Made by a program: the position numbers and the translations under genes. From the NCBI GenBank assembly GCA_031409335.1, contig JANNWY010000040.1, positions 1 through 11,954 on the forward strand: a stretch of DNA of 11,954 nucleotides. Direction: 5' to 3'. Under the pieces are notes generated by a model. That model saw only the letters and a list, made by a program, of their open reading frames with translations, had not been told where the DNA came from and searched no databases. Origin of the DNA: Chthoniobacteraceae bacterium. GTDB taxonomy: Bacteria; Verrucomicrobiota; Verrucomicrobiia; Chthoniobacterales; Chthoniobacteraceae. Below, in pieces: positions 8,516 through 11,931 of this stretch; position 1 is the stretch's first letter; every line of letters starts with the position of its first letter.

Positions 8516-8923
8516 TTACTCGAAGGGATTCACCACCGGCACGCCGCAGCGCGTGAAGTCGTCCACATTGCGCGTGGCCACCGTGAGTCCGTGCAGCTTC
8601 GCGGTGGCGGCGATCATGGTGTCGGCCATGCCTACGGTGAAACCGGCGCGCTTCACTTTGTTAAAAAGTTTGCCCCACACGATTCCCGTTTCCTCCGTCC
8701 AATCCAAACAGATGGTCGTGCTCCGCAGCTCTTGAAACCACGATTCAAGATCCCGCTTTTTGAGCCCCGACGGCATCGCATCGATCCCGCGCCAGATTTC
8801 CGCCAGCACCACGGCATCGACCACGCTCTGAGCCTCGTTCCTGGCAATCCAGGCGAGCACGCGGGGCGACGGCTGCAGCTTGGTTGGCTCGCTCAGCACG
8901 TTCACGTCCACGAGGTAGTTCAT
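8516..8923 (-). CDS. vapC: Type II toxin-antitoxin PIN-domain toxin (VapC/FitB-like ribonuclease)
   Basis: 135 aa; YLVDVNVLSE, LAEIWRGI, DTMIAATAKLHGLTVATRNVDDF, VVNPFE are PIN-domain signature motifs with the acidic active-site residues. Confidence 0.92.
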   Translation of the reverse strand: MNYLVDVNVLSEPTKLQPSPRVLAWIARNEAQSVVDAVVLAEIWRGIDAMPSGLKKRDLESWFQELRSTTICLDWTEETGIVWGKLFNKVKRAGFTVGMADTMIAATAKLHGLTVATRNVDDFTRCGVPVVNPFE

Positions 8924-9174
8924 TCAAAGGGATTCCGCCAAAAGTCCGCAGTGGTTTCCCGGCGCTCCAACGGCTTATACCAGCCCTTCACCGGACAGCT
9001 CAGCAGCACATCAATGAGCCGGCGCTTGGGCTTTGCTTCATCCACGACCTTGACCCGCAGAGTGTCGCCGCCGAGGGAGTCGATCTCACAGCGTTGCCCT
9101 GGCTTGATGCGATGCTTCCGGCGGAGCTTCGCGGGAATTTCCACGGAGCCATCGGCTGAAACTTTAGTCGTCAT
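8920..9174 (-). CDS. AbrB/MazE/SpoVT-family DNA-binding antitoxin (VapB-like)
   Basis: 84 aa; MTTKVSADGSVEIPAKLRRKHRIKPGQ fits the AbrB swapped-hairpin pattern; ATGA overlap with the PIN gene. Confidence 0.85.
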   Translation of the reverse strand: MTTKVSADGSVEIPAKLRRKHRIKPGQRCEIDSLGGDTLRVKVVDEAKPKRRLIDVLLSCPVKGWYKPLERRETTADFWRNPFE

Positions 9175-10684: not shown

Positions 10685-10850
10685 ACGCCCATGATAACGG
10701 GCTTCACAGCTTCACACTTGTCTTACCTGCCAGACATCCCTCGCCTCATACGGGCTCAAGCTACTACCAACTGACTAGCGCGAAGCAGCTCGCGGAATCT
10801 ACCAGCGCCCGTTGGCTGCTTGACGACCGTAGCCATCACCAAGTTTTTCA

Positions 10851-10875
10851 AACTTAGTGGTTGACGACCTAAGTT
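10851..10875. promoter_or_regulatory. Inverted repeat AACTTAG-N11-CTAAGTT straddling the -35 box; candidate operator
   Basis: Perfect 7-bp arms at 10851-10857 and 10869-10875. Confidence 0.4.
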
Positions 10876-10889
10876 CAGAGGCTTACTTT
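10861..10889 (+). promoter_or_regulatory. Sigma70-type promoter for the leader/ncRNA/tRNA operon
   Basis: TTGACG (10861-10866), 17 nt, TACTTT (10884-10889); predicted start near 10896, just before the ATG at 10908. Confidence 0.7.
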
Positions 10890-10907: not shown

Positions 10908-11075
10908 ATGACATCAACCGGAACATATCCAAACCATTCGCAAGCGACCTCGTGGTTGCGTTGCGCGGGTATGTCCGTGCGCATTGGCAAACCCGGATTC
11001 GGGTTCGGCGTCCAGGCAACCAATACGCGGCCGAGTTCCGCGAACGAAGGCCTTACCAAGGAGGCCAGCAGGTAG
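10908..11075 (+). CDS. Putative attenuator leader peptide, 55 aa (MTSTGTYPNHSQATSWLRCAGMSVRIGKPGFGFGVQATNTRPSSANEGLTKEASR)
   Basis: First ATG after the predicted promoter; its TAG (11073-11075) lies inside the segment complementary to the 5' arm of the downstream terminator. Confidence 0.55.
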   Translation: MTSTGTYPNHSQATSWLRCAGMSVRIGKPGFGFGVQATNTRPSSANEGLTKEASR

Positions 11076-11122
11076 TTCAAGATCTGACACAGATCATCGA
11101 AATTTCGAGAACCCTGCCGGCC
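11049..11122 (+). promoter_or_regulatory. Attenuator alternative helices (anti-antiterminator and antiterminator)
   Basis: GGCCTT 11049-11054 pairs with GAGGCC 11061-11066. Alternatively GGCCAGCAGG-TA-GTTC 11063-11078 pairs with GAACCCTGCCGGCC 11109-11122 (13 bp, one A.C mismatch, 2-nt bulge). Confidence 0.7.
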
Positions 11123-11159: not shown

Positions 11160-11675
11160 CCAGTTTTCTAGTCGCGGCCCGATGGCCGCAAAACCAAAGC
11201 AACCAAACTGATCGACCAACACATTTGAACCACAACGTGGGCGATAAAAACCCCGCCGTCAGCGCAAACTGACGATGGGGCGGAACGCACGGCGCGGCAG
11301 CGCACTCCTACTAACGCGGAGCGCTTACCGCATAGCCGCCGGCGCGGCAATCGGTCACCAATCCAGATAAGTCCCTAGCGGAGACGCCGGTGAGTTAGTA
11401 ACCTCGCAAACGGTGGCAGCTCACGGAGTAACTGTCAAGCCAGTCAATCTTACGATGACTAGCTAGCGGATCTGTATTGTCTGATTCCTCGCCCTGACTT
11501 CTCCAGTCCAGAGGCTTCGCATGACTAACTATGTCATGCACCGGGAGGTGTGCCTGAAACACCGAAAGAACCGCCGTGAAATAATCCTGCGGGTGCGAAC
11601 TCAAGTTCCGAGTTGGCAGCGGTGTTTGTTCTTTTTTGTCGTATGCGGCGCGGGTGTCACAACCCGCGCCGCCCA
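11160..11675 (+). ncRNA. Candidate large multi-domain structured RNA(s) upstream of the tRNA array (family unassigned; context like GOLLD/ROOL)
   Basis: More than a dozen helices by eye, including nested long-range stems 11209-11215/11351-11357, 11360-11378/11463-11486, 11390-11396/11418-11424 and 11570-11574/11619-11623; GAGA and GCAA loops, AGUA motifs, G.U pairs on the + strand; no convincing protein ORF. Boundaries approximate. Confidence 0.6.
11645..11675 (+). other. Perfect 11-bp GC-rich hairpin followed by CCA
   Basis: GCGGCGCGGGT-GTCACA-ACCCGCGCCGC-CCA, 3 nt before the first tRNA. Confidence 0.8.
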
Positions 11676-11678
11676 TTT

Positions 11679-11752
11679 GCGGTCATCGTCCAAGAGCAGG
11701 ATGCCTGAACGCCAATCAGGCGATGCCGGTGCAATTCCGGCTGACCGCACCA
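11679..11752 (+). tRNA. tRNA-Gly(GCC), non-canonical
   Basis: Acceptor GCGGTCA/TGACCGC, D stem GTCC/GGAT, anticodon stem CCTGA/TCAGG with loop AC-GCC-AA (anticodon 11711-11713), T stem GCCGG/CCGGC with loop TGCAATT, A73, encoded CCA. Confidence 0.88.
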
Positions 11753-11770
11753 TTTTCAAGTACCCACAAC

Positions 11771-11844
11771 ACGGCGGGCGCCAGCTTGCGCAGCTTGGTC
11801 TCCAGAACCTTGCGGGCTCGGGGCAGCACCGAGACGCCGTGCCA
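11771..11844 (+). tRNA. tRNA-Trp(CCA), degenerate/non-canonical
   Basis: Acceptor ACGGCG/CGCCGT (A1-U72, G73, G7.A66 mismatch), D arm GCGC-CAGCTT-GCGC, anticodon arm TTGGT-CT-CCA-GA-ACCTT (anticodon 11802-11804, two U.U pairs), T arm CTCGG-GGCAGCA-CCGAG, encoded CCA. Confidence 0.75.
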
Positions 11845-11855
11845 TTTCTTCAAAT

Positions 11856-11931
11856 CGCGGGGGAGCCAGGTGGGAAGGCAGCGGCCTCATAAGCCGTCAA
11901 TGAGCGGGTTCGATTCCCGCCCCCGCCACCA
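11856..11931 (+). tRNA. tRNA-Met(CAT), initiator-like
   Basis: Acceptor CGCGGGG/CCCCGCC with C1.C72 mismatch, D arm GCC-AGGTGGGAA-GGC, anticodon arm GCGGC-CT-CAT-AA-GCCGT (anticodon 11888-11890), T arm GCGGG-TTCGATT-CCCGC, A73, encoded CCA. Confidence 0.9.

Follow-up and report, generated by a model that had tools for sequence, protein, structure and literature searches.

The window analyzed here is the 11,954-nucleotide stretch of DNA that runs from position 1 to 11,954 of contig JANNWY010000040.1 of a Chthoniobacteraceae bacterium (assembly GCA_031409335.1). The features of interest lie near its 3'-end on the plus strand. A likely sigma-70-type promoter, TTGACG-17 nt-TACTTT, is positioned at 10861 to 10889. 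We infer it from the sequence because it falls below the threshold of the promoter scan; in relatives, a TTGAC is found at the same place ahead of the leader ORF. That ORF, 55 codons in length, extends from 10908 to 11075, and its last codons (11063 to 11072) are complementary to the 5'-arm of an intrinsic terminator-like attenuator hairpin delineated by positions 11107 and 11147 (folding z of -4.98, with 0/200 shuffles as good). The region from 11239 to 11641 is a structured RNA, namely the leader of a tRNA-array/RtcB operon, and lies downstream of this leader-peptide attenuator. The first gene of the array, a tRNA-Gly(GCC) at 11679 to 11752, displays unusual bases in the anticodon loop and the T-loop. 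It is followed by a probable, atypical tRNA-Trp(CCA) at 11769 to 11844, the anticodon of which was read from the sequence at 11802 to 11804; this gene was missed by both ARAGORN and Rfam, and its homologue at locus L024 is called as tRNA-Trp(CCA). A tRNA-Met(CAT) occupies 11856 to 11931, and the contig ends 23 nt further on. Elsewhere in the window, a small two-gene pair on the minus strand (8516 to 9174), which we take to encode a PIN-domain toxin and an AbrB-type antitoxin, is inserted before a DUF1501 gene.

Upstream DNA sufficient to evaluate the attenuator was available for 93 homologous loci, and a terminator is present in 83 of them. An ORF with at least seven contiguous antiterminator pairs at its end was observed at 50 of the 93, and 33 more show a terminator with a shorter or unparsed antiterminator match. 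The ten terminator-less loci include the recombinase-associated copies and the orphans described below. The window itself contains a bulged version of the antiterminator with five contiguous pairs. Across loci the leader ORFs are similar in length and unrelated in sequence, and they end within the antiterminator strand; in a divergent family, referred to as f19, the terminator stem and the antiterminator change together. As read from the sequences, this arrangement of ORF and terminator is the anatomy of a ribosome-coupled attenuator. Its anatomy and gene content, together with the analogy of the Anabaena tRNA array, for which this was shown (PMC8421152), suggest that translation stress would induce it.

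A conserved, folded RNA leader stands at the start of operons for tRNA arrays and RNA repair in Verrucomicrobia. BLAST searches with 11340 to 11660 gave matches in 32 of 101 related genomes, the extents of which varied from full length to the 3' third or to the last 25-35 nt alone, and the same type of search against plasmid and phage collections gave no match. The leader has two parts, a lineage-restricted 5' domain (11239 to 11494) and a core (11512 to 11641). The core set was obtained with a pattern based on the 3' part that was run against the genome collection. Nearly all of the 120 stretches listed, out of approximately 310, are labelled Verrucomicrobiota. When these were combined with 21 earlier loci, 135 of the 141 proved to be true and six were coding false positives. 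The core thus occurs at at least 131 distinct sites in Verrucomicrobiota. A covariance model of 110 positions, built from 49 core sequences, revealed the divergent form in f19 (four loci in three genomes). Its counts, namely matches in 2 of 151 genomes of the phylum and 4 of 151 in f19, refer to the best 25 candidates per genome and are not a measure of prevalence; one of these matches (G272/L421), without tRNAs, was false. A strict pattern run against 401 genomes of the phylum matched the window's own genome (G000) alone, and is uninformative because it was too narrow. RNA-library contigs of relatives from four studies cover parts of the leader, and such contigs show no ends, strand or level. 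Positions 10692 to 10875 are uncovered by them, and a gap in contigs proves nothing.

A preliminary description of the window had placed an ornate structured RNA with nested junctions and a possible pseudoknot at 11360 to 11640, next to tRNA genes. It was right about the neighborhood, and all of the complementary stretches it listed are present in the sequence. A conserved multi-helix RNA with a pseudoknot indeed exists here; the pseudoknot and several of the helices that were chosen for it did not hold up, the element starts earlier (at 11239), and it has a partner kilobases downstream. The folding energy of the original interval is marginal (z of -1.65 with 6/100 shuffles as good for 11360 to 11640, and z of -1.53 with 19/200 for 11355 to 11650), whereas the larger unit from 11236 to 11645 yields a z of -3.01 with 0/100 shuffles. 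A relative without the 65-nt insertion described below gives a z of -3.55.

The architecture of the 5' domain is supported by covariation in homologues. Its helices are formed by 11239-11244 with 11489-11494, 11349-11354 with 11481-11486, and 11359-11368 with 11470-11479, and it contains hairpins at 11390 to 11424 and 11442 to 11460. In an alignment of 20 sequences, these two hairpins and stem P1 of the core (11547 to 11563), all three of which had been proposed in the preliminary description, were upheld. The outer helix had been drawn in the wrong register: 82.5% of cells are paired in the revised 5' model versus 71.8% in the original one, although both percentages are inflated relative to shuffles by kinship, and the revised model was drawn from the same 20 sequences. 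Two-sided changes occur in 29 of the 51 pairs of the revised model, with many G.U pairs on the plus strand. Other proposed elements are complete in a minority of the aligned sequences and were abandoned, namely a kissing interaction between 11500-11504 and 11380-11384 (5/20), GACT/AGTC at 11496 to 11508 (5/20), GCG/CGC at 11378 to 11387 (6/20) and CCTC/GAGG (8/20). The 5' domain is accessory because it is present at 43 of 131 sites, is replaced by another type at 50 and is absent from the f19 cores; the remaining 38 sites are unclassified or too short. At the 50 loci with the other type (L177, L184 and L195, for example), the ornate domain gives way to a 5' region of another kind that includes a short conserved palindrome and may represent an operator or a separate RNA domain.

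Two further elements lie within the limits of the 5' domain. The first, at 11251 to 11280, is a hairpin whose non-canonical pairs read as G.U on the minus strand, where a U-run comes after it. In 36 homologues, 40 A.C and 2 G.U combinations were counted as read on the plus strand, an A-rich run precedes the hairpin in 29 of the 36, and the scan listed it as a minus-strand terminator. On this sequence evidence it likely terminates antisense transcription. The second is a REP-like insertion of 65 nt at 11284 to 11348 that does not belong to the conserved RNA and is absent in close relatives, the contigs of which join across the insertion site. Copies of the element in relatives are located between tRNAs in both orientations, and at L192 a similar REP-like element is inserted at the same site. 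The hexamer TGTCAA at 11433 to 11438 is invariant. It is positioned ∼100 nt past the minus-strand hairpin and resembles a minus-strand -35 box, but an antisense sigma-70 promoter there is unsupported, with a TAnnnT -10 element in 2 of 36 homologues. In a search of the window's own genome for units like the 5' domain, none of 25 loose hairpin matches carried TGTCAA.

The conserved core, ∼110-130 nt in length, is built around an H-type pseudoknot (11512 to 11563) in which AGGC at 11512 to 11515 pairs with GCCT at 11552 to 11555 in the loop of stem P1 (11547-11551 with 11559-11563). Among 123 parsed cores, the pairing is GGGC/GCCC in 74, AGGC/GCCT in 43 and contains G.U in six, with no mismatch. 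These 117 Watson-Crick cases of 123 leave out three cores that lack the strand by the pattern and five that were unparsed. The pair switches at least three times on the HNH tree. Invariance of P1 and of the 5' strand of P2 is no evidence because both are fixed by the search pattern; P1 does change compensatorily in f19 and in phage copies, the stems of which vary freely. A hairpin at 11519 to 11539, noted in the preliminary description and present in the window, is a variable insert within the pseudoknot, being just a 7-nt linker in 89 of the 123 parsed cores. For the following hairpin, P2, the originally proposed ACCGC/GCGGT closure has been replaced by CCGC at 11571 to 11574 with GCGG at 11589 to 11592. 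The start of its loop is conserved, and its GCGG strand, which lies outside of the search pattern, is invariant and complementary in 49 of 49 sequences. An extension of P2 past 4 bp was not supported in homologues. By inspection, the hairpin P3 (11594 to 11618) varies in length and keeps its pairing. A switch between P1 and a second GGTGT in the tail was considered and rejected, in that it displays no covariation, its score is reached by 231 of 500 shuffles, and it is impossible in f19.

The core and the minimal pseudoknot from phages described below are RNA motifs absent from Rfam 15. A scan of the window at E≤1 gave nothing except two tRNAs downstream of the leader, and a narrow scan at E≤10 gave three chance matches with E of 3-7. 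Novelty with respect to Rfam therefore stands, as the preliminary description had surmised. HDV-like/theta and other small ribozymes gave no Rfam match, and a by-eye fit to the HDV topology failed; likenesses to C4/a1b1, OOP, Y RNA, xrRNA and HDV folds were likewise not supported.

The 3'-end of the leader, or tail (11616 to 11641, plus strand), contains a boxA-like 8-mer at 11627 to 11634. G[TAC]TCTTT occurs in the tail of 101 of 127 cores, and this 8-mer is identical to the first eight nucleotides of the rrn boxA in these families (12 operons). It is absent in 26 of the 127, among them an entire clade in which the trailer described below persists, and it is retained in recombinase-module copies that lack a trailer. 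The two bases that follow it are GT in 39 cores, TT in 24, AT in 21 and others in 17; they are never GA or AA, the dinucleotides found in the rrn boxA of these families. In the window, the 8-mer carries G2, C5 and U6 of the boxA core but not the purine-rich 3' extension of the GYTCTTTAANA consensus. In the crystal structure, recognition by NusB-NusE is limited to 8 nt, with G2, C5 and U6 being critical (PMC3177189). The window's genome contains genes for both nusB and RNase III.

The tail is complementary to a distal trailer. Its reverse complement reappears 468-9682 nt further along the same transcript, beyond the last tRNA and ahead of HNH or rtcB, and none of 36 trailers is followed by a tRNA within the next 3 kb. 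A trailer score of at least 17 was reached in 29 of 74 loci, as compared to 0/74 on the opposite strand and 0/53 upstream. Of 41 loci with HNH/RtcB in view, 35 have an accepted trailer, two have a strong complement elsewhere and four have none. In total, 40 tail-trailer pairs were accepted, including four f19 loci, with duplexes of 13-37 nt; L232, a core in the genome of Chthoniobacter flavus, and L247 were dropped as false pairs. Ungapped duplexes span at least 17 nt, mismatches included, in 36 of the 40. For comparison, the reported minimum for the 16S helix is 17 bp (PMC10250234). Tail and trailer co-vary at approximately ten places on the HNH tree (L043, L048, L052, L185, L211, L223, L241, L249, L189/L250 and f19 are examples), and the lengths of their U-runs agree in 7/7 and 2/2 pairs. 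In an independent, HNH-anchored metagenome set, all seven cores have a trailer that matches their own tail variant. Less informative are the G.U excess in the duplexes, which is weak (28 G.U versus 14 A.C after removal of the two false pairs, in a tail that is G/U-rich), and the duplex energies, which do not discriminate own from other trailers (-64 versus -52 kcal/mol, with the own trailer best in 10 of 42).

The array is unassembled in the window's own genome. On another contig (G000:C12:75507-75531), the linkage of which to the window contig we infer, a trailer precedes rtcB and HNH; this trailer would pair with 11616 to 11641 and with 11588 to 11598. Five of five draft genomes contain trailers with no detectable core, in a search that had no positive control, and at three metagenome loci the trailer has no tRNAs within 7-8 kb upstream. 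Both observations argue against a strict partnership of core and trailer. A further trailer, on C324, is accompanied by a truncated rtcB start. Directly 5' of the trailers of G000:C12, C324, L030, L032 and L033 lie oppositely oriented genes that, by their look, we presume to be toxin-antitoxin-like or restriction-modification-like, which suggests that this region is an insertion hotspot.

Downstream sequence of at least 1.5 kb was available for 81 cores, of which 51 precede arrays of at least five tRNAs, 15 precede one to four and 15 precede none. The operons encode RtcB, TROVE/Ro60, RlaP, SPFH and HNH proteins. The genes for TROVE, RlaP and SPFH fall inside the loop closed by tail and trailer, and coding sequence therefore begins ahead of the trailer. 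The tRNAs are oriented on the strand of the core in 750 cases and opposite in eight, and no locus has three or more opposite. Some cores (L053, L054 and L236, along with the short loci L158, L262 and L263) are instead positioned before serine recombinase-ParB-ParB modules; these lack attenuator and trailer and share upstream motifs of their own. Orphan cores at L194, L237 and L251 (all on one chromosome) and at L183, L216 and L268 are without attenuator, boxA-like 8-mer or tRNAs.

In viral contigs the pseudoknot recurs alone, as a motif of 25-35 nt shortly past stop codons (loci L057-L175 and L435-L554; for example, L453:1501-1526 and L509:1501-1525). Approximately 580 viral stretches match the loose pattern, most of them by chance. 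A GGC strand lies upstream in 46 of 73 distinct P1 matches. With a looser pattern, the stem is extended by at least four pairs in 29 of 102 copies, where we estimate that ∼2 would be expected, and 21 of these 29 are within 45 nt of the stop of a long ORF, as compared to 10 of the other 73. The proteins encoded upstream of 15 viral copies comprise one major head, one major tail and one HNH protein, two of unknown families and ten unmatched. A viral pattern based on P2 alone gave three loci of known type plus chance matches. Seventeen viral loci were compared with Rfam, and only tRNAs were matched. Judged from this short motif, the phage and bacterial cores may be homologous. The role of the pseudoknot may be a separate one because it occurs alone in phages.

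Several known systems share parts of this organization. In rrn leaders, with their boxB-boxA (Nus antitermination complex) and leader-trailer helix (PMC10250234, PMC11404451, PMC3177189), hairpins are likewise followed by an 8-nt boxA or boxA-like site before a long untranslated stable RNA, and complementary, co-varying strands of about 17-35 nt flank the stable-RNA region. Here, in contrast, a tRNA array and some protein genes are enclosed rather than rRNA, and the leader is positioned behind a leader-peptide attenuator, with the pseudoknot upstream and the boxA-like site inside the pairing strand. In the rrn operons of f19, as read from the sequence, the leader-trailer helix starts inside boxA. 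Since the tail-trailer helix encloses tRNAs and protein genes, it would work like an rrn stalk but is not one, and the leader, a genuine and new RNA motif, likely functions in the manner of an rrn leader without being one. The boxA sites of suhB and of CRISPR arrays also precede a non-rRNA transcript; unlike the present case, neither a distal complementary trailer nor a pseudoknot is mentioned in the sections of those reports that were consulted (PMC5725501, PMC13753749). The L-arrays and the trn operon of Anabaena likewise have HNH, rtcB and RNA-processing genes alongside a long tRNA array (PMC8421152). Control there is ascribed to promoter repeats and the TrcR repressor (PMC10272220), and the word leader is absent from the main text of PMC8421152, whereas here an attenuator and an RNA leader are found. 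The processive antiterminators put, EAR and conAn2 are also structured cis RNAs ahead of or inside long operons, mobile elements included; they show no sequence or Rfam similarity to the core, and in the sections of PMC8191782 consulted no complementary off-switch is described for them. In the open-access literature searched, neither the motif nor any leader-trailer helix around a tRNA array is described, with the qualification that the supplements of PMC5737381 and PMC10690425 could list the core or the phage motif as unnamed candidates.

The interpretation that we favor, with a probability of about 0.45, is that the leader combines a Nus-loading site with a leader-trailer helix in the manner of an rrn operon, which would carry polymerase through the array and then, by pairing, release or reset the repair genes. 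Points in its favor are the tRNA-array context, the trailer with its covariation and the kept 8-mer. Counting against it are the altered bases after the 8-mer and its loss in one clade, the protein genes inside the loop, the operons that have no trailer, the trailers found without a core or without tRNAs, the weak G.U excess and the lone pseudoknots of phages. By sequence and covariation, the leader ORF can switch the terminator, and a slowing of the ribosome would open it. After read-through, NusB-S10 would load onto the 8-mer and keep the tail near the polymerase across kilobases of untranslated RNA, and the pseudoknot may protect or tether the leader once RNase P has cut off the first tRNA. 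As the trailer emerges, the tail-trailer helix would form, bury the boxA and end the Nus mode, thereby marking off the HNH/rtcB message; the helix would also probably be cut by RNase III, which would define the 5'-end of that message. This scheme follows the tethering model for rrn operons (PMC10250234; bioRxiv 10.64898/2026.03.17.712431).

A broader proposal, which we regard as doubtful, is that the pseudoknot core represents a new class of cis-acting RNA, a processivity element that would serve stress operons, recombinase-ParB modules and, in its minimal form, many phage operons by riding on or protecting the elongating transcript. In tRNA arrays the trailer would then be an off-switch up to 10 kb away, and the whole an antiterminator with a built-in antisense off-switch.

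Of the competing explanations, the one that fares best, although it too is improbable, is an antisense brake: RNase P would free the leader as a stable small RNA, which would anneal to the 5' UTR of HNH/rtcB and repress these genes. Phage C4 and CI RNAs repress genes in their own operon in this way. With C4 and P4 CI, a leader RNA is cut by RNase P and finds a complementary site downstream in the same operon, which parallels the present arrangement. Both are listed as RNase P substrates in PMC5499578. HNH or rtcB always follows the trailer immediately, in some cases with the start codon 8-30 nt away, and in two lineages the trailer pairs with P1 or P2 strands as well (z below -2 in 7/39); in the window's own genome the cofold amounts to -90.6 kcal/mol as against -47.3 and -9.1 kcal/mol. 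Such extended pairing is not a general feature, however (mean z of -0.55). The leader has no C4-type Rfam match and belongs to a host stress operon, one long helix takes the place of loop-loop contacts, and its hairpin loops vary without a matching partner. The boxA-like 8-mer of the trailer-less copies would also be left unexplained.

Somewhat less probable still is a plain processing stalk, in which the helix does no more than offer RNase III a place to cleave between the array and the mRNA behind it, and the likeness to boxA is incidental with no Nus complex involved. The clade that lost the 8-mer and retains a co-varying trailer fits this explanation, as do helix lengths like those of rrn stalks and the presence of an RNase III gene. 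Against it, without tethering of the leader tRNA processing would normally have parted the strands by the time the trailer is transcribed, and the 8-mer is kept both in most cores and in copies that have no trailer.

We consider it quite unlikely that the strands act at the DNA level, as inverted repeats that mark out a tRNA cassette able to move or invert, their complementarity being maintained by recombination rather than by RNA pairing. The near-perfect match, run lengths included, the horizontal movement of L-arrays (PMC8421152), the core copies before serine recombinase-ParB modules and the cassettes inserted beside trailers would all suit such repeats. Yet the strand bias of the tRNAs gives no sign of an inverted array, the recombinase copies are the ones that lack trailers, G.U pairs are tolerated, and hairpins are extruded from the match.

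The chance is slimmer again that this is a free-standing GOLLD/ROOL-type RNA transcribed together with the tRNAs, as the preliminary description proposed. GOLLD and ROOL RNAs, too, are structured, lie near tRNA clusters and combine a 5' part that varies with a 3' part that is conserved (PMC12286853, PMC5737381), and the covarying multi-helix 5' domain, the adjoining tRNAs and the RNA-library contigs of relatives are in accord with that proposal. Many GOLLD RNAs exceed 800 nt (PMC12286853), whereas the present core is far shorter and is without an Rfam match even at E≤10 in the narrow scan. The ornate 5' domain is missing in f19 and replaced or absent at most sites, and the core holds a fixed cis position between attenuator and first tRNA, with a co-varying distal partner. 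Least probable of all is that the pseudoknot underlies a ligand-responsive switch or a self-cleaving ribozyme: its sequence is highly conserved, in phages too, the second GGTGT could displace P1, and RtcB repairs the end type made by small ribozymes, but the alternative pairing lacks covariation and cannot form in f19, models of known ribozymes and riboswitches do not fit, and the attenuator already supplies regulation.

Leader-trailer helices and Nus loading are textbook features of rRNA operons and are undescribed for tRNA arrays in the open-access literature searched. If the favored interpretation is correct, cells transcribe and delimit their stress-induced tRNA arrays as they do rRNA operons. 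The arrays would provide a natural test, backed by covariation, of the model in which a tethered leader waits for its trailer, over distances of 0.5-10 kb that are interrupted by tRNA cuts. The favored interpretation would also account for the way in which the nuclease and the RNA ligase at the operon end come to be controlled separately from the tRNAs.
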